DNA of 64,000 bases from an uncultured Poribacteria bacterium (GCA_958295855.1 OY282383.1:4958329-5022328), one strand, 5' to 3'. Shown: positions 8,756 through 58,110, counted from the first letter of the stretch. The notes: generated from the letters alone by a model not told the origin. Translations and numbers: made by a program.

Positions 8756-8930
8756 TCGTTATTCCTTGCAGAAATGCACGTCGCTTATGGGCGAAATACG
8801 CCGCAGAATTGAGAATGCAAGATACATCTAAGAATGCACTGTAGCTCTCGTCGGAGGTTTCTGACGCAAGGTTTACATAAGAGTCCTCTGACGAGATTTG
8901 TAAGGGCTTTCGAACTACACTGGCAAGCAT
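8756..8930. repeat. MITE family A copy (composite)
   Basis: Contains ctcgtcggaggtttctgacgcaaggtt, cctctgacgagatttgtaa and gaattgagaatgcaag modules shared with 1718-1870, 12585-12690, 55236-55320 and 63005-63095. Confidence 0.8.
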
Positions 8931-8939
8931 GGTTCTCCG

Positions 8940-11900
8940 CTATTCAGATTTAAGGGTTGATAACAGGGGGCTGCGGAGTGCCAAGGCAGCCGCAACAGCA
9001 TTTGCAATTATACCAAAGACGAAGATGGAAAGCAAGGTAATTGTGAGGGACAACCATGGCAAAGCGCGGAGATGCTCTAAGATAATTGTGAGGGACAACC
9101 ATGGAAAAGCACGGAGATACCATTGCGAAGTCAGGATTGCTGCAAGCCCCGCGACAATGCCGATAAGCATCCCCACAGTGAGAAGGAAGCAGTTTTCAAG
9201 AAATAGCATCCGCGAGAGGAACTGGCGGCGAAAACCGAAGGCACGCAGGGCAGCCAATTCCCTGCGGCGTTCGATGATATTTCTAAACAGCACGAGTGCT
9301 AACCCGAGGGTGCCGAGCAACACCCCTAAACCGCCGAGGCTCTGAAAAGTGGAGATATAGGTGTTTTCAACTGCCCGGTAGCTTGCCAATCGCACCGATG
9401 CTAACGTAACATCAAATCCGTAATCGCCTAATGTTTTTTCTAACGTTTGTTCTGTCTCTGCCATCAATTCAGGTGGCGTTTTGATGAGGAAAAATTGATA
9501 CCCGCTTTGACTCGGGAAGTATTTCATGAAGTTCTCCTCTGAGATGATGAGCTGGCTTTGGAACAGGCTGTTCTCGAGCGTGCGAAGGTGAAGGCTGAGC
9601 GGTTTTCCAAATTCATCTTGGATGATAAATTCATCGTCAGGATTGTGGTGTAAAATCCAGCGAAGCGACTTTTCATCGCCGATGGCGATAACCTGGCCGC
9701 CGGTATCGGATGCGTTCGGTATTGGCTTCCGCCATGTTCCCGCCCTCCCGCTTCCCCCCAATGCGAATACGGCATCCGAAACGCCTAAAATTTGCGGTTT
9801 CTGGGGCCGATAGAGGTTGAGACAACTCACATCTTCACCGGGAAGTACGCGAAACGGAATCACCTCCGATGCGCTCAGGAGTTGGGAAGCTTTCTCGGAA
9901 AAGCCGAGTTCAAACCGTCCCTCTGGCGTATTCAGGCTGTGGTGTAAAGGGAGCGCGGACTCAGCGACAAAAGCGTACGCTGTCTCTGGAAGGGCATCGT
10001 GCCGATTTGCGCCCACTGCGACGATAATACAGCACGCCAAGCTGACCGTTGTAACACAAGCTTTGCTCCGTTTTGCCTGCCACGCGGCGTTTTTGAGGGA
10101 AAACCGCATCCTGCTCAGCCGCTTTGGTACACGCTGTGAACTTAGCCATTTATTAAAGGCGGACCAACCTACACCGAGAATAAAAAGCGTCGACAGGAGA
10201 AATTGGACAATCGGATGCATAAACCATGTAACAAGCGTATCCAGAATCCATGCACCAACAGGAAAATAGGCTGTTATGACACCTACAACGAATCCGATGA
10301 CGAAAGAAACGAATTGATGGAAATCACCGCTGATCAACAAGAAGAGGCTAAAACCTACCACAAGCAAAATAGTACTAAGTCCGCTCCATCCCTCCGTAAA
10401 GAGCAGACCACCTCCCAGGATACCGAGCATGAATCCACTAACAAAGATACGAATTTTGGCTACCCAACCCCCTGATACATTTGCATTTTGAGGGAGTGGT
10501 ATTATCCCCCGCTTGGCGGGGGTGAATACCCTAAGCGGTGTGGCATTCGCGGCATCAAAATCAGTTTCACCGGCGAGGAGCGCGGCAGTGGAGACACGCC
10601 CTACCCTGACAACAGCCCTAAGGATAGAAATCATAACGACTGCGAATACTACCAGGATACCGATGAGTAAGCTCCACAGACTCGCATGAAATTCTATAAA
10701 GGGTGTGCCGATAGCAGGCAACCACCACGTCTGTAGCCCGAATATCATCAGCTGTGCATACCCGATTGCCAGCAGGCACCCTAAGAGACTACCGATACCA
10801 GCGATGATGCCCCCTTCGTAAAGGAAACGGCGACGGATTTTGGCAAGTGGGTAGCCAACAGCTTGTAAAATGCCGATCTCGCGCGAACGTTGTTCGACAC
10901 CGATACAAAAAAACATCTCAACGAGCCAGGCGACCGCGAGGATTAAAAAAAAGCTTAGACTGCTAAACAACATGCCAAAATCTGTTGCTCCTGCTGATGC
11001 TTCAAGCCCATCCGAGCGAAGCGGTAAAAACTGGAACCCGACCTGTTCTGGCTGAATCTTTTTGAGGAATTCAGTTTCAAAAAGCGCGCGTGTCGCAGGG
11101 ATGTCTGTGCCCGGTGCAGTTTCCAATCGAATAGCGGTGAGTTCTCCGAATCGGTTTTTCCAGAGTCGTTTGCCGGTTTCCAGCGGAACATAAGCTTTCG
11201 GCGTTGCCCCGTATTCATCCCAATATGCCTCATCCTGACTACGAATGAGGGTGTAATCAATCGGAAAAGGAGACTCCCATTCGGACATATCGGCGGTGTC
11301 GTGAATGCCCGGAAATTCAGGGATGATGTCCCTGTCTGCGGCAATACCCTCAATTGGAACAATGCCTTTCATAAGGAATTGTGCCTTTTCAATCGTGTAC
11401 GTTTCACCCGCGTCGACGCGATAGTAGTTAATCTCAACACTATCGCCCACTTTGGCATCAAGCTCTGCCGCTGCCCACGTATTAAGGATAATTTCATCTG
11501 TTCCCCCCGATACCAGCGGTGCTTCAAGTTTGTCAATTGGCAATGCCATGATTGTTGCGTATGGAACAGTTTTGTCGTTAGTCCTTATCGTATTCGCGAG
11601 GTAGGTGAGTGTAGGGAGCACAGGGATGTGGTTTTCAGCCGCAATTGTTAGGGCCGTATCCGACAGGACTGGCTTGAGAAGGTACTGCTGGCTTTGCAAG
11701 TCGAAGTGGTTCTCATGTTCCTGAATGTTTAAGCCGAGTGCCGCTAGCGTCAACTGAAGGTTGTCCGGTGAAAGCGGAGCAACGTCTGCCGTGAATAGGG
11801 CGTTCACTTTGCCAGCTTGGCCAAGTGCTTTTTGCAAAACCGGGAGTGCGATGAACACATTCAAAGGGAGGCTTTGATGTGCGCGCAGACTGAATCTGCC

Positions 11901-21263: not shown

Positions 21264-21378
21264 CTGAATCACGGATTATCACAGATAACGCAGATGACGC
21301 GGATTTTAAAAGCGTCTCTGCTCTTCTCCGCGTTAATCCGCGTAATCTGTGTCATCCGCGATTCAGACAATGAACCAT
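21264..21378. repeat. compact MITE of family D (imperfect terminal inverted repeats around aaaatccgcg / cgcggatttt)
   Basis: tctgaatcacggattatcacagataacgcagatgacgcggattttaa … ccgcgttaatccgcgtaatctgtgtcatccgcgattcagacaatgaacc. Same modules in 25560-26470, 47640-47795 and 56950-58110. Confidence 0.75.
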
Positions 21379-25559: not shown

Positions 25560-26470
25560 AAATCGCCGTTACATCTGAATGCGCGGATGATTTTCTCGTC
25601 TGAATCACGGATTATCACGGAGTACACGGATAGACGCGGATTTTAAGAGGGCCTCTGCTCTTCCCCACGTTTGTCCGTGTCATCCGTGCCACTCCGGGGT
25701 TCAGACAATGAACCATTACATTTCCCCATTAATTTTTTGTTTTCACCAGACACCTGTCGCCCCGCTGGGGCTAAACAAGCAGGTAGGCCCGTGGTACTAT
25801 ACACATGTCGCCCCGCTGGGGCTAAAGAGGTTGCGCGCGGGTTATTTTCTTGTCTGAATCGCGGATTATCACAGATTACGCAGATGACGCGGATTTTAAG
25901 AGGGCTCTGCTCTTCCCCACGTTTGTCCGTGTCATCCGTGCCACTCCGGGGTTCAGAAATGAACCATTACATTGCCCCATTAATTTTTTGTTTTCACCAG
26001 ACACCTGTCGCCCCGCTGGGGCTAAAGAGGTTGCGATCGTGGGGTATTTTCTCGCCCATAAGCGACGTGCAGTCAGACAATAAACACCTCATCGCTGCTA
26101 GGCTTGTAGCGTGACGTGACTTTACAAAAACACCCTCTTAAAATCCGCGTTAATCTGCGTAATCCGTGTAATCCGCGATTCAGACAATGAACACCTCCAT
26201 CCCCCCCATTAATTTTTTGTTTTCATGAGACACCTGTCGCCCCGCTGGGGCTAAACAAGCAGGTAGGCCCGTGGTACTATACACCTGTCGCCCCGCTGGG
26301 GCTAAAGAGGTTGCGATCGCGGGTTATTTTCTCGCCCATAAGCGACGTGCAGTCAGACAATAAACACCTCATTGCTGCTAGGCTTGTAGCGTGACGTGAC
26401 TTCACAAAAACACCCTCTTAAAATCCGCGTTTATCCGCGTAATCTGTGTAATCCGCGATTCAGATTAAAT
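25560..26470. repeat. array of composite family-D repeat units (about 230-290 bp each, about 3.5 copies) containing paired 24-nt direct repeats ACATGTCGCCCCGCTGGGGCTAAA
   Basis: gtcgccccgctggggctaaa at about 25755, 25800, 26010, 26235 and 26285. Inter-repeat segment caagcaggtaggcccgtggtactatacac conserved. aaaatccgcg/gattcagacaatgaacc modules. No ORF. Confidence 0.85.
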
Positions 26471-41747: not shown

Positions 41748-43397
<1,650 letters not shown>

Positions 43398-43542
43398 CTA
43401 TTGGTTTTAGAGTAATTCGCTATTTAAATATTTGGATATGCTTAATTATAGCATGCACGGCGTGTAAAGTCAATTTTTTTAATGACCCGGAGTTAAAACC
43501 TGACATCATCTCAAGTTCTTCCTTTTTGCCATCCTAATACGC

Positions 43543-46233
43543 CTAAAAGAGTCTGTCTTGTCTCATATCTTCCCTAACTCTTTCACGACCGGCAAGGAAA
43601 CCATCTAATAACTTCTTCTCTCTGCTCTCAATCGGCAGCGTTTCAGATACGGCTTGCGCGACACGATAGAACGCCTCGCTGCGTCCAAAACCACTGTCGA
43701 AAAGGACACGAATCATCTCATCTCGTTGGCTCTTTTCCCAGAGGAACAGCACATGGTGAAGCACGTCAATCAGCTCATCAGCACCAGAAAGACTGTCAAG
43801 CATTCGCGTTTGTGGCCCAAGCACGCGAATAAACTGCTTTTCTTTCACAATGAACCCTTTTCCGCCCCACTTTTGTGCAACATCCACCCCACAGGACTGC
43901 GCCAATTTCCGCGCCTCGTCAAAAGGAACGCGCGCTTCGCCGTATTCCCATCGCCAGAGGACATAGAAGCGGGTAATGTCGGAAATCTCACCTGCAAATC
44001 CATTGTGCAAAATCTGCCGCACGGCATAATCGGTGGCGATTTCTCGGACATCGTCAAGCAGGCGATGCGCGCGGATAATCTCTCCTTCAAAAGTCATGAC
44101 CTGCTCGTATTTGCCGAAGACCTCAATTGCCGAGCCGATGGCGGCGATAAAAAAGTCTGCCCCGCTCAGGCCTTCCTCCCAGAGTCTGTGGAGTTTCGCG
44201 TTGAGGTGCGTTGTCAGTTCCATCTTGACTTCGTTGTAGAAACCTGTCGGTTCGCGTGCCATTTTCCGGGCGACGATGTAGATGGAGGAAGCGAGCGCAG
44301 CCGATTCATTAGCCCGTAGTCGGGTAGCCTTTTCTGTAGACAAGGGCCAAGCACCAGTCATGATGAGCCCAGAATCCAGCAAAGCGTTAATCAGCGTCTC
44401 CCAACCTGCAGTGGATTTGTGGGCATAGACGATAACGGTGACACCGTTGGGTTTCAAAACGCGGTGAATTTCTTGGAAAGATTGCTTGAGCGCCTCCTCA
44501 AAGAACCGCTTTCCCTCCTCAAAACCGCCTGGGCCGTGTGAATAGGCGACAACCTCGTTTCTCTTCGGAGTCAACGGTGTGGCGAAAAGTTCAGGATGCA
44601 CATCACCCAACGTTCGCTTCAGCCATACGTAGAAGAAATCGGAGAGATACGAATAGGGCACGTTATCGTAGTATGGCGGATCGGTGAAAACGGCATCGAA
44701 GAAGTTGTCAGGATGCGGTAGGTTGGTGGCTGAGGATTGGGTAACTGTAGCATTGTGTGGGAAAAGCGTTGAACTTAAATGTGAAGTAATTTTTAAAGTA
44801 GTATCAGTTTGCCTAGCCCAATTCCCTGTCAAAATACCAGATGGATTTTGCTCTGAATAATCAAAAACCATAGGGAGTGCCTGCCGGCCAAAAACATTGT
44901 AAACATTTTCCCCCAAAGGGTGCCACCAACACAAAGACGCATTATAACTTGAATGACAGCTTAGGATTAAAGCCAAATAACTCACCACCGCCTTCGCGTA
45001 TTCTGCATCAACCCCTTCTGCCACCATCTTTTGATACGCCGCCCTCACCTTCTCCGCAAACGTAATCAATGATAGTTTCTGCCGCGCGTTGAAGAGGTCT
45101 CCCCATTTCAGTATGCCATAGCCTTGCACCCGAAAACCTAATGTGCCTTTCGGTGGCAGAGGCTCATCTGGCACCGCGTCCATGCCCCATGCCAAAGTCA
45201 ACTTCTCCCGCTTCTCCGCAAGGTACGCCGTGGCGCACGCAAAGACAGCCAGGTCAGTATCCGTCGCCACACGATAACGTTTACCCGTCGTACCCGGCTT
45301 GTGCAGTACAACGGCAACCAGCCGCTGTCCCGATTTCCCCTCCTGAAACAGGCGCCGCGTCAACTTGGCTTCCACCGCCCCACCGCACACAGGACACACC
45401 GCCACAGCGCGTGAGATAGTCCCTTTCGTTGGATCAAAGTTGTCAGGCATCTGTTCATACCCATCGCCGACAATCTTGAAGTCGACACGCCCACTTTCAA
45501 CATCAGGATACAGTGCCACCTTTTTTTTCGCCTTCTTCGCCAGCCAGAATTGTTTCAGCAAGGGGATATCTATACCACACGACGGGTTCTGACATGGAAT
45601 TGTCCTTGCCCAAATATACCCGACCGGAATTGACCCGTCTGCCTCTTCAGAGTAGAATGTGCCAAGCTCCTTCTTCGCTTCGGCAAGCACCCACTCTCCC
45701 CATTTCTTGACATCTTCTAACAAAGGATTTTTCGCCGGTTCACCAAAACGGATGCCTTCACCCGGTTCCCCCGCGGGGCTGCCGTACTTCTGTGAGTATT
45801 CCAGCGTGCATTTCTGAATTAAGACAGCAACAGGGTTAAGGTCATTGGAATAGGTGTCGCATCCCAGTCGAAGTGCCTCCAGCGGAATTGCACCGCCGCC
45901 CCCAAAGGGATCGAGAACCTTCGGTGGCGCACCGTCGTTGGAAACCTCAAGGATTTCTTCCTGTGCTCTTTTAATTAGATGGGAATTTAGGGAATTTTCC
46001 CACTTCGAGAGGTCCCTGATAAAATTCCGTTTCTGCTGCCACTCGTCAATATCTTTTGGGGGTGGAATCAAGGCAGCGTAGGCGGTTGCCCGTGAAGATG
46101 CAAGCGGCCGCCTCGCCCACCAGATGTGGAGGGCAGAGATATGTCCGTGGCGTATGTTTTTCTCGCGAGCGGCCTCGGCGGAGACTTCTTTGACAGGGAA
46201 GGTCTCTTCAATGAAACGTTTGTCTTCGTTCAT
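43543..46233 (-). CDS. DUF1156-type N6-adenine/N4-cytosine DNA methyltransferase
   Basis: N-terminus ETFPVKEVS…HIWWARRP (DUF1156-like), motif I DPFGGGGAIPLEA, motif IV FTDPPYYDNVPY, Zn ribbon CPVCGG. Size 896 aa. Confidence 0.7.
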   Translation of the reverse strand: MNEDKRFIEETFPVKEVSAEAAREKNIRHGHISALHIWWARRPLASSRATAYAALIPPPKDIDEWQQKRNFIRDLSKWENSLNSHLIKRAQEEILEVSNDGAPPKVLDPFGGGGAIPLEALRLGCDTYSNDLNPVAVLIQKCTLEYSQKYGSPAGEPGEGIRFGEPAKNPLLEDVKKWGEWVLAEAKKELGTFYSEEADGSIPVGYIWARTIPCQNPSCGIDIPLLKQFWLAKKAKKKVALYPDVESGRVDFKIVGDGYEQMPDNFDPTKGTISRAVAVCPVCGGAVEAKLTRRLFQEGKSGQRLVAVVLHKPGTTGKRYRVATDTDLAVFACATAYLAEKREKLTLAWGMDAVPDEPLPPKGTLGFRVQGYGILKWGDLFNARQKLSLITFAEKVRAAYQKMVAEGVDAEYAKAVVSYLALILSCHSSYNASLCWWHPLGENVYNVFGRQALPMVFDYSEQNPSGILTGNWARQTDTTLKITSHLSSTLFPHNATVTQSSATNLPHPDNFFDAVFTDPPYYDNVPYSYLSDFFYVWLKRTLGDVHPELFATPLTPKRNEVVAYSHGPGGFEEGKRFFEEALKQSFQEIHRVLKPNGVTVIVYAHKSTAGWETLINALLDSGLIMTGAWPLSTEKATRLRANESAALASSIYIVARKMAREPTGFYNEVKMELTTHLNAKLHRLWEEGLSGADFFIAAIGSAIEVFGKYEQVMTFEGEIIRAHRLLDDVREIATDYAVRQILHNGFAGEISDITRFYVLWRWEYGEARVPFDEARKLAQSCGVDVAQKWGGKGFIVKEKQFIRVLGPQTRMLDSLSGADELIDVLHHVLFLWEKSQRDEMIRVLFDSGFGRSEAFYRVAQAVSETLPIESREKKLLDGFLAGRERVREDMRQDRLF

Positions 46234-46364
46234 AATGGATTCCTCCTATGTTAATGTGGGGTGTAGTAGAGCACAATTGCAAATGGGTCAACACAATTTG
46301 GTAGGTTCGCATAGATGCTGCTCGCCGCACGCGTTGAGTGGCATCAATTTCCGCGATAATTTTT

Positions 46365-47579
46365 CTATCTGTTATACAATACCAACAAGGGCACCTGGTG
46401 TTTGATCGGGACGTTCTCGCGTTCATATTCCCAATCACTAATCGCTGAACTTGATGTTTTCTTGAGACCTAATTCCTCCGCTACCTGAACCTGTGTCAAG
46501 CCTGCTTTCATTCTCATTTCTCTCAATTCTTGACCTGTAAATTCAAAGTCAATAGGCTCAGGCAGATCGATAACGGGTGCGGATGCTTCTTCTAGTGCGA
46601 TTTCTGCGTTCAGTTCTGCTTCACCTGATGCCACATTGGATTTTAGATATTTTTTATAGGCAAATTCAAGCACGGGTAGAAGTTCTCTCAGATTTTCAGG
46701 AATAGCATAATAGGCTCTACCGTGATTGAGACGATCCGAGGCAGTCTTGCATCCATGTTGCCTTCCCAATTTTTCTGCCTCTTCTTCCACTATCTCGGCA
46801 AAGAATCGAGGAGGGCTAAAAGTAATGTCGAGGCCAAAGACTACTTCCTCTCTATACCCTTTTAACCCAAAACTACAAAGATCTTCCGAGAATTTCCGAT
46901 CTAGTTCCCAACCTTCTTCTTCAATCAAATGCAGCATCTCTGCAACCCCGCTGTAAAATGCGCTGCATTTTTTTTCAGGATATTTTGATTCATAGTGTTT
47001 CCTAAGTTCTTGGGGTACGGAATCTCTAACCCGCGCTATTGTCCTGTTGGCCTCCGTTACCGCCCGTGTCTTTTCTTCTAGTGCGATTTCTGCGTTCAGT
47101 TCTGCTTCACCTGATGCCACATTGGATTTCAAGAGGTATTTCTCCAGATCGGAGATAGCAGTCTCTCGATTTTCAATATCGGTTTCACAGAAAAACCTGT
47201 CGCCCAAACTGGAGGCTTCCCACCGAAAGAGGTAAAATCGCCAGCGTTTGCCGTTTGTAATTATTGCAAGGGGGACATTTCCACTATAAGCGTAGGAGCA
47301 GGTTTGTTCCTCGTATCTTGCGATTGGCTCATTCCACCGTTTACACTCAATCAACACAACAGGATTCTGTTCTTGTTTGATGCGTAAGGCGTAATCAGCA
47401 CTTCCACTCTCTACCTTATATTCCGGTAGAACTTCCATAGACGCTAAATTAGCATCGTCCCAACCTAAAGCCCGGAGAATGGGCAGGATGACATATTGCT
47501 GGGTGGTTGCTTCTTTGGCATATGTCAGGTGTTCTTTGTGTTCAAGAATATGCGAAATTGTGTTTCTCAGATCCGGCAT
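46365..47579 (-). CDS. PD-(D/E)xK nuclease (HsdR-N/Mrr-like) with C-terminal XRE-type HTH
   Basis: …SADYALRI…VVLIECKRW (D…ExK core). C-terminal LTQVQVAEELGLKKTSSSAISDWE HTH. Start set at MPDLRN, because upstream ORF sequence is repeat. Contains an exact ~58-nt internal direct repeat. Confidence 0.55.
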   Translation of the reverse strand: MPDLRNTISHILEHKEHLTYAKEATTQQYVILPILRALGWDDANLASMEVLPEYKVESGSADYALRIKQEQNPVVLIECKRWNEPIARYEEQTCSYAYSGNVPLAIITNGKRWRFYLFRWEASSLGDRFFCETDIENRETAISDLEKYLLKSNVASGEAELNAEIALEEKTRAVTEANRTIARVRDSVPQELRKHYESKYPEKKCSAFYSGVAEMLHLIEEEGWELDRKFSEDLCSFGLKGYREEVVFGLDITFSPPRFFAEIVEEEAEKLGRQHGCKTASDRLNHGRAYYAIPENLRELLPVLEFAYKKYLKSNVASGEAELNAEIALEEASAPVIDLPEPIDFEFTGQELREMRMKAGLTQVQVAEELGLKKTSSSAISDWEYERENVPIKHQVPLLVLYNR

Positions 47580-47589
47580 GCGACATCTC

Positions 47590-47795
47590 CTTATTCCTAG
47601 TGATATACTCCCACTGCTAAAGCAAGGGGAAACCTCCGTCTCTTGCCCACCGTGCCACCGTGTGTCCCGCTGGGGCTGAGCATCTAGGGCAGTCTGCGTT
47701 TCTATACACATACCGCCCTGACAGGGCTAAAACGCCCCCAAAATCCGCGTTATTCTGCGTAATCCGTGTAAATCCGCGATTCAGACGAAAAATGA
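47590..47795. repeat. family-F hairpin element (ttcctagtgatatactccc…ggggaaacctcc) plus degenerate family-D modules
   Basis: About 45 nt homologous to 17436-17482 next to the tnpB remnant. gtgtcccgctggggctga / gccctgacagggctaaaacg / aaaatccgcgttattctgcgtaatccgtgtaaatccgcgattcagac. Confidence 0.7.
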
Positions 47796-47825: not shown

Positions 47826-49544
47826 TTATTTATTGTCTGCCGATGGCAGGGCAGGCTCCACATACAACGTCTTTTCGTGTGTGTAATGCACATAGCCTGC
47901 TACGTTGCCCTTTCGCTTAACGACATAGCGCGCCCATGTATAGTCAACGGGGACATGGCTGGCATGGTGCGCCTTGCTGAAGTAGGCGGCAAGTTGGGCG
48001 GCTTGCAAGAGCGTTGGCATCGGGATGTCGGGGCGGTTTTCTGGGTTGCGGATGATGACATGCGACCCGTGGATTTGCTTTGCGTGGAGCCACATGTCGC
48101 GCGGCTTGGCAATCTGGCGCAAGAGCAGATCGTTGGATTGGCTGTTGCGCCCGACGTACATCTGAAATCCGTTGGTGGAAGTATACTTCCGGAAAGGGCC
48201 TTCGCTCCTCTGCTGTTGCTGTTTACCCCGCTGTTGCGCCCTGAGGTACCCGTTCTCAATAAACTCGGTACGGAGCGCGCGTAGCGAGTCCAGTGTATCC
48301 GCCGATTCAACTTTGGCTTCATAAACGCAGCGGACTTCTTCCGCCGCTTCTAGTTCGGCAAGCCGCTGTTGGATAAGCGAATACCCTCGTTTTGCCTTGG
48401 TGTATTTCTTGAAATAGGTTTGTGCGTTTGCGGAAGGTGTCTGTTCCGGATTGAGCGGAATTAAGAGCGTTTCCAATTCTGGGCTATAGTAATTTTGCAA
48501 CGCAACCTGTTTTTGCCCGCGGGTGATGGTGTGTAGATTTGCAAGAAGCAGTTCGCCCTGAATGCGATAATCTTCTGATTTTTCGGCACGTTCTAAATCT
48601 GCACGCAACCCATTCGCTTTTCGCTGCAGCAGATTCTGCTGTTTTTCCAATGCCTGTGTGAGGGTGCGTTGTTCCGATGCGATGTTCTCCTTCAAGGTGA
48701 TTGCCTCGTAGTAGGCAGTCAGTGCCTCGCTCATCGTTTCAAACGTCTGGCAGGTGGCATTCGGAAATTGGTACAACGGTATCGGGGAAGCGGCTATAGG
48801 CTCCGTACCCTCCATGAGCAGTTGTGGAGAGGCATGCCTCGGATCTAAACAGGCGATAACCTGCTGATAGGCATCCCATAGTTCTGTCTCCTCAGCCCGC
48901 GCGACAATCTCCTTCGCGAGTGTCGGGCTGAGCCCATCAATTTTGTTAAAGAGTTGTCGCCAACTCACGGCTACAGGGCCGGACGATAAAAAGAGTTCAG
49001 TAAACGTTGCCTTATCTAGGCTCAACGGATCTAATTTCTCTTGTTGTGGGGGTAAACAGTAGGTTTCACCGGGCAAAACTTCTCGGTGTCGACTCATTGT
49101 TTCGTCAATATGTTTCAGACATTCCAGAATTCTATCCTCAACTGCGTCGATGAGGATGATGTTGCTGTGTTTGCCCATAAACTCTGCAATAATTGCTTTC
49201 GGTGACGGGTGTATCAGTTCATCAGAAACGGGTTGGACAGTTATCTTGAGTATCCGATCCCAACCGAGTTGTTCAATTGCGGTAATAGTACCACGTCTGA
49301 GGTGCGTTGTTAGGAAATCTGCCAGATAGGATTGCTTCTGCCCCTCGGGTGGCTTTTGAATGAGATGGGCACGGGCATGCACAGAATGGGCAGATAAAGT
49401 GAGCCAGTGCGTTTGGGCAGCGCGACCGATCTTGAATGAAAAGGTGTGTGGGTTGGCTTGTTCAATGTGCCGGATGGTGCTGCCCAAAAGGGTTTGGCGC
49501 AATTCGTGCGTAACAAGGCGTAAGGCTAAGCTATCATAAGACAT
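47826..49544 (-). CDS. rqcH: NFACT-family ribosome quality control protein (RqcH/FbpA-like)
   Basis: N-terminal NFACT-N (DSLALRLVTHELRQTL…PHTFSF). C-terminal NFACT-R/DUF814 (DMWLHAKQIHGSHVIIRNPE…). Confidence 0.75.
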   Translation of the reverse strand: MSYDSLALRLVTHELRQTLLGSTIRHIEQANPHTFSFKIGRAAQTHWLTLSAHSVHARAHLIQKPPEGQKQSYLADFLTTHLRRGTITAIEQLGWDRILKITVQPVSDELIHPSPKAIIAEFMGKHSNIILIDAVEDRILECLKHIDETMSRHREVLPGETYCLPPQQEKLDPLSLDKATFTELFLSSGPVAVSWRQLFNKIDGLSPTLAKEIVARAEETELWDAYQQVIACLDPRHASPQLLMEGTEPIAASPIPLYQFPNATCQTFETMSEALTAYYEAITLKENIASEQRTLTQALEKQQNLLQRKANGLRADLERAEKSEDYRIQGELLLANLHTITRGQKQVALQNYYSPELETLLIPLNPEQTPSANAQTYFKKYTKAKRGYSLIQQRLAELEAAEEVRCVYEAKVESADTLDSLRALRTEFIENGYLRAQQRGKQQQQRSEGPFRKYTSTNGFQMYVGRNSQSNDLLLRQIAKPRDMWLHAKQIHGSHVIIRNPENRPDIPMPTLLQAAQLAAYFSKAHHASHVPVDYTWARYVVKRKGNVAGYVHYTHEKTLYVEPALPSADNK

Positions 49545-56961: not shown

Positions 56962-58110
56962 GCGATGTGCATTCAGACAATGAACCATTACATTTCCCCA
57001 TTAACTTTTGGCTTTCATCAGACACATGTCGCCCCGCTGGGGAAACCAAAGAGTGAGGGTAGGCACGCGGTACTATACACCTGTCGCCCCGCTGGGGCTA
57101 AAGAGGAGCATCGCCGCGCGGCCCACGGACAAAGGCTCGTAGGGGCGGTATGTTTATAGTATCAGGTTGCCCCTTCCGTAGCGAAAACAGAGATTTGGAT
57201 TTTAATTTGAAAATAGATTTGGAATGTGTTAGACTTAAAGCAATGAGCCTATTACCGCGCGGAATATGACTGAGCGTGAGAAACGAAACTTTAGGAGGCT
57301 CCGAAAATGAAGGCGCTGCAAGTCCCAGAGTTTTCGACTTATGAAGAGGAAGCTGCGTTTTGGGATAACCTTGACACCGCTCGGGCATGAAAATATAAGG
57401 GCGAAAGCCTATAGGGTGGGTTGAACGGGGCCACCTAAATACTAGGCACATGTCGCCCCGCTGGGGCTAAGGATGAGGGTAGGCACGCGGTACTATACAC
57501 ATGTCGCCCCGCTGGGGCTAAAAACGTTTCGCATCCCCGCGCCTTAGTCCCGTAGGGACGCAGGGTAGGCACAAGGCCTAGCCCTACAAAAAAAGAAATT
57601 AAGAACACTTTACCGAAAATGTTGCACCGCGAGATGCCCAAAATCCGCGTCATTCTGCGTTATCCGCGTCATTCCGCGATTCAGATAGAGGCGATATACA
57701 TGTCGCCCCGCTGGGGCTAAACAGGAGGGTAGGCATGCGGTACTATACACATGTCGCCCCGCTGGGGCTAAAAACGTTTCGCATCCCCGCGCCTTAGTCC
57801 CGTAGGGACGCAGGGTAGGCACAAGGCCTACCCCTACAAAACAAGAAATTAATAACACTTTTCAGATAGAGGCGATATACATGTCGCCCCGCTGGGGCTA
57901 AACAGGAGGGTAGGCACGCGGTACTATACACATGTCGCCCTGACAGGGCTAAGAGGAAGGAAATAGGAAATCGTCGTGTGGCCTGTAGGGCGAACGATTA
58001 AAATCCGCGTTTTCCGCGTAATCCGTGTAATCCGCGATTCAGACAATGAACCATTACATTCCCCATTCATTTTTGGTTTTTATTCGACACATTTCGCCCC
58101 GCTGGAGCAA
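56950..58110. repeat. second array of composite family-D/E units with paired 24-nt direct repeats (ACATGTCGCCCCGCTGGGGCTAAA) and invariant 31-nt spacers
   Basis: Repeat at about 57030, 57090, 57449, 57510, 57698, 57760, 57879, 57940 and 58090. Spacer gagggtaggcacgcggtactatac conserved. gggtaggcacaaggcctacccctac modules. No ORF. Confidence 0.85.

Follow-up and report, generated by a model that had tools for sequence, protein, structure and literature searches.

A solitary HmaB-type methylase gene and a defense-like nuclease gene, probably juxtaposed by chance, between rqcH and groEL in a Poribacteria genome

The chromosome of an uncultured Poribacteria bacterium carries, between rqcH and groEL, a gene for an 896-amino-acid (aa) amino-methyltransferase of the DUF1156 family (the methylase) next to a gene for a 404-aa protein that joins a PD-(D/E)xK nuclease to a helix-turn-helix (HTH) tail (the nuclease). 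We analyzed this locus within a stretch of 64,000 nucleotides (nt) (GCA_958295855.1, OY282383.1:4958329-5022328), referred to below as the window. Our favored reading, to which we assign a probability of about 0.6, is that chance brought together a maintained solitary paralogue of the methylase HmaB, probably having its own DNA motif and probably cotranscribed with its neighbor, and an older, independent, defense-like nuclease.

An initial annotation of the same DNA had instead proposed a minimal, noncanonical restriction-modification (R-M)-like pair. A pattern scan for the nuclease family, covering one genome per GTDB species, yielded 42 loci. When these were searched with the methylase, nuclease, GroEL, and RqcH proteins of the window, no DUF1156 methylase turned up at a distance of 10 kb or less from the nuclease gene (0/42), and the nuclease family stands beside the methylase in none of 80 methylase loci from a metagenome set (0/80; 28 of these loci have both flanks). 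Outside the window, the pair is known from a single sister genome (L001/L002), which is ~95% identical in nucleotide sequence over the region. Because the two genes are not conserved as neighbors, the proposal of a minimal R-M-like pair is not supported. The locus is laid out as follows.

41748-43385, same strand as the methylase and nuclease genes: GroEL/Cpn60 gene (flank)
43543-46233, minus strand: methylase gene, an 896-aa HmaB-type (DUF1156) amino-methyltransferase, solitary paralogue (open reading frame [ORF], Pfam, PADLOC)
46234-46364, minus strand: spacer of 131 nt between the nuclease and methylase genes
46365-47579, minus strand: nuclease gene (404 aa), with PD-(D/E)xK nuclease, helical linker, YjbR/MotA-CTD-like domain, and appended XRE HTH
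47826-49544, same strand as the methylase and nuclease genes: NFACT/RqcH gene (flank)

The annotation had correctly placed the pair between groEL and rqcH, with a repeat element on its upstream side (47740-47786), but the nuclease gene is not the methylase gene's only same-strand neighbor, since groEL and rqcH share that strand.

Identity of the methylase

Both ORFs are present as first described. The N-terminus (ETFPVKEVS...HIWWARRP) and the motifs DPFGGGG and DPPY, from which a DUF1156 methylase had been proposed, were confirmed in the 896-aa protein, and a hidden Markov model search placed Pfam DUF1156 (PF06634) at residues 12 to 70 (E 4.8e-22; 78 bits versus a cut-off of 24). The best full-length match in any library was PADLOC HmaB (PDLC00661; residues 4 to 786, E 3e-134). 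Weaker matches were to BREX (bacteriophage exclusion) PglXI (PADLOC E 1.5e-12) and, partially, to several Pfam methyltransferase families, including Cons_hypoth95 and UPF0020; the NCBIfam model NF042963, "anti-phage-associated DUF1156," gave 195 bits against a cut-off of 1000, and a profile search against Protein Data Bank (PDB) sequences gave no match. The protein consists of the DUF1156 N-terminus, motif I, a large insert, motif IV, and a C-terminal helical region, the two motifs being encoded as follows.

45892-45912, minus strand: S-adenosylmethionine (SAM)-binding motif I, DPFGGGG (aa 108-114)
44671-44682, minus strand: catalytic motif IV, DPPY (aa 518-521)

Across 41 homologues motif IV is invariant, as are D108, F110, and G111 to G114 of motif I, with P109 conserved at about 90%. 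Every copy of the gene described below keeps its start codon, ribosome-binding site, and full-length frame. The ratio of nonsynonymous to synonymous substitution rates (dN/dS) outside the variable part of the gene is 0.11 to 0.20 in six comparisons involving the window copy and no higher than 0.23 in any of the nine pairs, and this low ratio argues that the solitary copies are kept as working proteins. Judged by its sequence, the window methylase is an additional HmaB copy that has kept its full length and an intact catalytic site.

The triad of helicase, methylase, and DUF499 protein is known as Hma (PMC8565338, PADLOC, Payne et al. 2021; PMC11232893, Halomonas meridiana) and has been renamed Type-1 DUF499-centered "BREX-related," a type whose methylase is termed an N6-methyltransferase; DUF3780 belongs to Type 2 only (bioRxiv 10.1101/2025.10.09.681413). 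In the metagenome set, an SNF2 helicase was found in 35/36 methylase loci having at least 4 kb upstream, DUF499 in 43/43 having at least 3 kb downstream, and both in all 28 loci with both flanks; the canonical arrangement also occurs in two further Poribacteria genomes. The tie to a DUF499-type, BREX-related defense family that had been suggested for the methylase is sound, as is DUF499 as a usual partner; DUF3780, the other partner named, is a Type-2 component, and this lineage uses an SNF2-nuclease helicase together with DUF499. The absence of the usual partners from this locus was likewise upheld: tblastn with the L049 helicase and the L049 DUF499 protein as queries found no homologue of either in the 64-kb window. 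DUF3780 was absent among the neighbors scanned in the window, with none recorded in the syntenic locus L001, and neither hsdM nor hsdS was found among the neighbors scanned. Two 1200-aa ORFs elsewhere in the window, checked as possible paralogues, proved unrelated.

Solitary maintained copies of HmaB appear unusual, none being present among the 28 metagenome loci with both flanks. One locus, L062 (OFBB01000074.1), is the only metagenome locus with 10 kb upstream in which that stretch lacks an SNF2 helicase; its methylase, on a contig that ends there, may be a further solitary copy. A separate observation concerns an MNT/HepT toxin-antitoxin pair, which lies between the methylase and DUF499 genes in Poribacteria Hma loci (L004, 12827-13466; L049, 12740-13379). 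In six metagenome loci (L111, L112, L114, L118, L121, and L128), the MNT/HepT matches lie within the stretch covered by the methylase match, which suggests that the methylase genes there are split or interrupted.

Insertion at the groEL site

The closest relatives of the methylase are 72 to 98% identical over their full length, and several of them share chromosomes. Paralogues at four loci of sister genomes are 87 to 98% identical to the window methylase in amino acid sequence, and those at the canonical loci L004 and L049 are 87 to 91% identical to it. Sister genome s22 has four copies.

L001: groEL site, syntenic with the window
L003: after an extracytoplasmic function (ECF) sigma factor gene
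L047: near SAM-cycle genes; 98% aa identity to the window protein
L004, canonical: SNF2-NOV_C helicase, XisI, AAA_15 ATPase, methylase, MNT/HepT, DUF499

Genome s18 has the ECF copy and a canonical copy, and the window's own 5.50-Mb contig has at least one further copy, P0126 (88% identity in the 41-sequence alignment, 87% by BLASTP).

DNA similarity among the copies runs from 0 to 10 nt before the ATG to 2 to 36 nt past the stop codon. In the window, blastn alignments to L047, L048, L049, L003, and L004 end at 46243/46233 on one side and at 43535-43545 on the other, with a weak extension to 43507 in L049 and L004. The sequence past the methylase stop codon reads, in order, as 8 nt common to other copies, a 45-nt remnant of a gene for a 242-aa secreted protein, and the upstream region of groEL.

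43535-46243, minus strand: transplanted segment, whose DNA homology to paralogues starts 10 nt ahead of the ATG and runs 8 nt beyond the stop codon (blastn)
43488-43534, minus strand: 45-nt remnant of the 242-aa secreted-protein gene

The remnant is 82 to 95% identical in nucleotide sequence to an interior stretch of the 242-aa gene as it occurs at 18 or more methylase-free loci, and by tblastn it corresponds to residues 133 to 149 of the protein. The remnant following its stop codon marks the methylase gene as an insertion that displaced the 242-aa gene. The converse, a deletion producing the methylase-free state elsewhere, was ruled out by the survival of this internal remnant together with the ORF-bounded homology to paralogues. 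On this sequence evidence, the methylase came to the rqcH-groEL site as a recent, ORF-sized insertion, after the nuclease gene.

Three of the noncanonical copies keep ~100 nt of the canonical upstream region, including a promoter-like TTGCAA...TATAAA; this conserved region is present at L003, L047, L048, and L049 and absent from the window and L001 copies. The spacer at 46234-46364 contained no predicted promoter-like or terminator-like site on the minus (coding) strand and no convincing palindrome of the C-box operator type. Its derivation from the canonical promoter region was considered and rejected (local alignment score of 16, versus a shuffle mean of 14.6). Because the insertion brought no promoter, the window methylase probably shares a transcript with the nuclease gene or is expressed from it. 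The events would be these: the HmaB gene was copied almost exactly ORF for ORF (46243-43535) from the Hma locus to several chromosomal sites, and the copy in the window was inserted between groEL and a nuclease gene already resident there, destroying the 242-aa gene and leaving its own promoter region behind.

Variable segments and exchange between copies

Amino acid differences among seven copies cluster at residues 361 to 510, the remainder being nearly identical, and two entropy peaks occur in the same region among the 41 homologues. Outside two hypervariable segments, both of which lie between motif I and motif IV, the copies are ~90% or more alike.

45100-45162, minus strand: segment A (aa ~358-378), window allele LPPKGTLG-FR-VQGYGILKW
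44734-44976, minus strand: segment B (aa ~420-500), window allele LILSCHSSYNASLCWWHPLGEN...

Each segment has at least seven discrete alleles among the 41 homologues, occurring in many combinations and assorting independently: the window copy is A1B1, L001 is A2B1, L049 is A3B1, L003 is A3B2, and L004 and P0126 are both A2B2. Three observations argue for exchange among the copies. Synonymous divergence (dS) between allele classes of segment B is ~0.85 to 1.0, versus 0.14 to 0.26 in the rest of the gene. At the ECF locus, s22 and s18 have flanks that are 98.4 to 99.2% identical, and methylases that are 91 to 95% identical with an unalignable variable part. The window copy, finally, is nearer to the nonsyntenic L047 (98%) than to the syntenic L001 (93%). 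Recombination would thus swap the two segments among copies. The insert between motifs I and IV has been described as the target-recognition domain in the study of BREX-related systems (bioRxiv 10.1101/2025.10.09.681413), and segments A and B are probable specificity determinants of HmaB-type methylases. With its own combination of alleles, the window copy (A1B1) probably has its own DNA motif and most likely methylates one other than that of P0126 (A2B2) in the same genome.

These segments also bear on two alternatives in which the dispersed copies have a collective role. In the first, which we regard as tentative and on the whole doubtful, Hma would be a multi-specificity defense in Poribacteria, in which dispersed and separately expressed HmaB "satellites," the window gene among them, serve one helicase-DUF499 machinery or premethylate the genome for it while their two target-recognition modules are continually reshuffled by gene conversion. 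Type I hsdS shufflons achieve multi-specificity by shuffling adjacent half-genes through inverted repeats and a recombinase. The HmaB copies resemble them in having discrete modules that re-assort by recombination between gene copies, and they differ in being dispersed, full-length genes and in having as parent system Hma/BREX-related rather than Type I, II, or III. If the multi-specificity model is true, it describes a dispersed, full-gene counterpart of the hsdS shufflons and opens a first route to understanding how Hma-type systems set their specificity.

In the second, the window copy would be mainly a recombination reservoir, donating variable segments to the methylase of the Hma locus, with its own product of minor importance. 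The re-assortment of A and B alleles among loci and genomes, the occurrence of different alleles at one locus between ~99% identical flanks, the closeness to L047 just described, and the limitation of homology to the ORF would all be expected of a reservoir. We nevertheless consider it unlikely, because every copy retains an intact reading frame with its start codon and ribosome-binding site, three retain the conserved promoter-like upstream region, and the dN/dS of 0.11 to 0.20 over the catalytic and C-terminal regions implies that the proteins themselves are under selection. Under chance juxtaposition, the window product would act as a solitary methylase or would add specificity to helicase/DUF499 machinery encoded elsewhere. 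Whatever the role of the copies, the re-assorting segments are the most useful by-product of the analysis, as natural allele swaps suited to methylome comparison.

The nuclease family

The second protein had been described as having 405 aa, a D...ECK nuclease core, and a C-terminal XRE HTH; the core and the HTH were both found, and the length is 404 aa. Pfam HSDR_N matches residues 57 to 121 (E 1.6e-8) and HTH_31/HTH_3, of the XRE type, residues 349 to 388. The catalytic residues are intact: in the family alignment, D62, E78, C79, and K80 are invariant in 25 members, D62, E78, and K80 being the catalytic ones. An AAGGAG ribosome-binding site lies 7 nt before the ATG at 47579. The parts of the gene are as follows.

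47175-47579, minus strand: nuclease domain (aa 1-135) with D62, E78, and K80 (HSDR_N)
46647-47024, minus strand: C-domain (aa 186-311), alpha/beta, resembling YjbR, DUF419, DUF1801, and the T4 MotA DNA-binding domain
46365-46646, minus strand: appended tail, comprising a second linker copy and the XRE HTH (aa 312-404), with the stop codon

An AlphaFold 2 model of the nuclease (mean predicted local distance difference test [pLDDT] score of 78) has a PD-(D/E)xK fold, a long helix, and the alpha/beta C-domain. Foldseek matched the nuclease domain to the nuclease domains of BpuSI, DrdV, and HsdR (E ~1e-3) and the C-domain to 2fki, 2a1v, 2oc6, 1kaf, and 5jlt; the latter is a putative double-wing DNA-binding domain. 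Residues 186 to 310 give a match (E 9e-7) to the C-terminal part of PDC-S18, a PADLOC candidate. The C-domain occurs in only 29 representative clusters among 1.84 billion proteins; one of these is the 775-aa protein P0259, a type IV restriction nuclease of the GmrSD kind (DUF262/DUF1524) that ends in this domain.

Named homologues of the nuclease all come from Candidatus Poribacteria, and among the 42 loci every one with an organism name is from Poribacteria, three being labeled only "uncultured bacterium." Most family members have 330 to 380 aa and end at the position of window residue 311, without the C-terminal HTH. The gene lies between rqcH and groEL in most of the 42 loci, where the usual order is rqcH, sometimes HicA/HicB, the nuclease gene, the 242-aa secreted-protein gene, and groEL. 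It is truncated, frameshifted, or reduced to a stub at L031, L033, L038, L041, L042, and L044, and such decay in several species indicates that it is dispensable. The rqcH-groEL site would be a small hotspot of accessory genes, at which HicAB modules, the nuclease gene, and the methylase come and go, with the nuclease as an old resident present long before the methylase.

Other variation was seen at these loci. HicA/HicB modules stand between rqcH and the nuclease gene at L005 (9513-11035), L020, L032, L033, and L044, and the L005 protein P0003 is a HicB fused to a nuclease N-terminus. At L015, tandem nuclease gene copies lie upstream of groEL (8761-9807 and 9917-11041), the second of them having a signal-peptide-like N-terminal extension.

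The nuclease shares the PD-(D/E)xK fold and its D...ExK residues with HsdR (EcoR124I, 2w00), BpuSI (3s1s), and DrdV (7lo5), from which it differs in having no motor, methylase, or specificity subunit and in belonging to a family found only in Poribacteria, in synteny beside housekeeping genes. Like a Type IV stand-alone nuclease, it combines a nuclease with a predicted DNA-binding domain and has no adjacent DUF1156 methylase at 42/42 loci. It is most likely a stand-alone defense-type nuclease, possibly of the Type IV kind, as judged by family and domain content.

The appended HTH tail

The HTH tail is absent from most nuclease homologues, including the sister nuclease at L001. It follows a second copy of the linker, which forms part of an exact direct repeat.

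47073-47129, minus strand: 57-nt direct repeat copy 1, in the linker after the nuclease domain (100% identity)
46587-46643, minus strand: 57-nt direct repeat copy 2, in the linker before the HTH (spacing of 486 nt)

In P0004, P0009, and P0015 a homologous HTH is located between the conserved linker (LLKSNVASGEAELNAEIALEE) and the C-domain. The window HTH is 44 to 48% identical to those of L026 and L028 (tblastn), and HTH-bearing nuclease paralogues with no methylase nearby exist, L028 being one. The former end of the gene, "KKYGGN*," is still readable past the new stop codon. The HTH would have been added in this genome through recombination at the conserved linker, a site that seems prone to rearrangement, since P0092 also has a duplicated linker; the exactness of the 57-nt repeat may also mean that it is an assembly artifact. 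As a side point, if the two in-frame copies recombined with each other, the C-domain would be lost and the product would be a nuclease-linker-HTH protein.

The pair as a functional unit

Several observations weigh against chance juxtaposition. In the two genomes with a methylase at this site, it lies next to the nuclease gene in the same orientation, and at L001 the nuclease stop codon lies 17 nt before the conserved methylase ATG; given this adjacency and distance, a single transcript is very probable. The rate of change of the C-domain is also unusual. Family-wide dN/dS is mostly 0.06 to 0.16 in the nuclease domain and ~0.22 to 0.59 in the C-domain, whereas between the window and L001 it is 0.39 in the nuclease domain, and the C-domain has 44 nonsynonymous and 3 synonymous changes (omega ~4.6). 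This excess departs from neutrality (P = 0.0066) and from the nuclease domain (Fisher P = 1.6e-4). Gene conversion was ruled out as the source of the high C-domain dN because the C-domain dS, 0.036, equals the background of the flanks (groEL, 0.035; rqcH, 0.058). Rapid evolution of the C-domain on both branches is the only observation that might point to an interaction with the new neighbor, as an adaptation to it, but an arms-race gene or a gene changing its function would explain it equally well. With respect to the methylase, the helicase/DUF499 locus was seen only in sister genomes, the AlphaFold model (41 close homologues) has a mean pLDDT of 49 and is too poor to place the variable segments, and the one published test of DNA (not RNA) methylation by an HmaB was negative (PMC11232893).

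Taken at their strongest, these observations would describe a newborn R-M-like pair, in which the methylase protects the chromosome, unmodified DNA is restricted by the nuclease with its new HTH, and that HTH serves in the manner of a controller protein. Besides the shared strand, the adjacency, the 17-nt interval at L001, and the loss of the promoter region that paralogues carry, such a pair would account for the intact catalytic triad of the nuclease, the elevated omega between the only two pair-bearing genomes, and the gain of an XRE HTH in the window genome. We judge it quite improbable nonetheless. The nuclease persists with no cognate DUF1156 methylase at 42/42 other loci, so it is not lethal alone, and in 28/28 complete loci the partners of the methylase family are a helicase and DUF499. 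The HTH is missing from the sister genome with the same pair and is present in paralogues with no methylase nearby, such as that at L028. The relaxed constraint on the nuclease domain (0.39) and the loss, in the window lineage, of residues conserved in the linker and C-domain fit decay as well. The intact endonuclease site is reminiscent of a classical Type II R-M pair, for which the conservation of neighbors fails, and the XRE HTH, a domain that R-M controller (C) proteins have as small proteins with a C-box operator upstream of the R-M genes, is present here as a C-terminal tail of the nuclease. A minimal new R-M-like system, if true, would mean a new defense architecture, but the evidence says otherwise.

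A housekeeping role for the large protein, with RNA (for example, m2G-type) or protein methylated instead of DNA, which would make the defense reading moot and to which its weak matches to the RNA-methylase families Cons_hypoth95 and UPF0020 point, is highly unlikely given the tight linkage to an SNF2-nuclease helicase and DUF499 (28/28 loci), the resemblance to BREX PglXI, the discrete re-assorting modules typical of DNA target-recognition domains, and the patchy distribution and variable copy number.

We therefore retain chance juxtaposition of a solitary HmaB paralogue and an older nuclease as the preferred account. Some functional coupling may have arisen after the insertion, in view of the probable cotranscription and fast-evolving C-domain of this lineage.

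Comparison with known systems and significance

Solitary ("orphan") DNA methyltransferases derive from R-M systems, and the window methylase is like them in having no linked restriction partner. Its architecture and profile match are those of HmaB of the Hma, or Type-1 BREX-related, system, from which it differs in standing alone, with no HmaA helicase or HmaC DUF499 protein in the 64-kb window, and in belonging to a lineage with several dispersed methylase copies per genome. With Type-2 BREX-related systems (DUF1156, DUF499, and DUF3780) it shares the broad methylase family, but it scores far below the NF042963 cut-off, no DUF3780 lies among the scanned neighbors, and the canonical partner in its lineage is the Type-1 SNF2 helicase with a C-terminal restriction endonuclease domain.

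These findings do not overturn current views; they refine the annotation of a sponge-symbiont genome and supply testable material for the biology of Hma. The nuclease family, confined to Poribacteria and having a rare, fast-evolving C-domain, is of moderate value in its own right.

Other features of the locus

The gene upstream of groEL is that for the 242-aa secreted protein in most syntenic loci and otherwise the methylase gene. In the window and in the syntenic loci whose upstream region was examined (L005-L044), groEL has no groES alongside.

The repeat upstream of the nuclease gene is one of a dispersed intergenic family.

47740-47786: the upstream copy of this ~47-nt repeat, with ATCCGCG units

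The repeat sequence, AAAATCCGCGTTAATCTGCGTAATCCGTGTAATCCGCGATTCAGAC, contains three to four ~10-nt ATCCGCG units, and six further copies occur in the window, at 26140-26185, 26420-26464, 25852-25897 (minus strand), 57637-57685, 58000-58044, and 21327-21368. An Rfam scan of the whole window gave no match, so the upstream copy is not a known RNA. Sister genomes have arrays of the repeat at L001 (6946-7742), L004 (2018-3736), and L049 (5174-5698); these arrays, in which the copies of L004 are spaced ~235 nt apart, precede the Hma helicase gene and immediately precede the nuclease gene.

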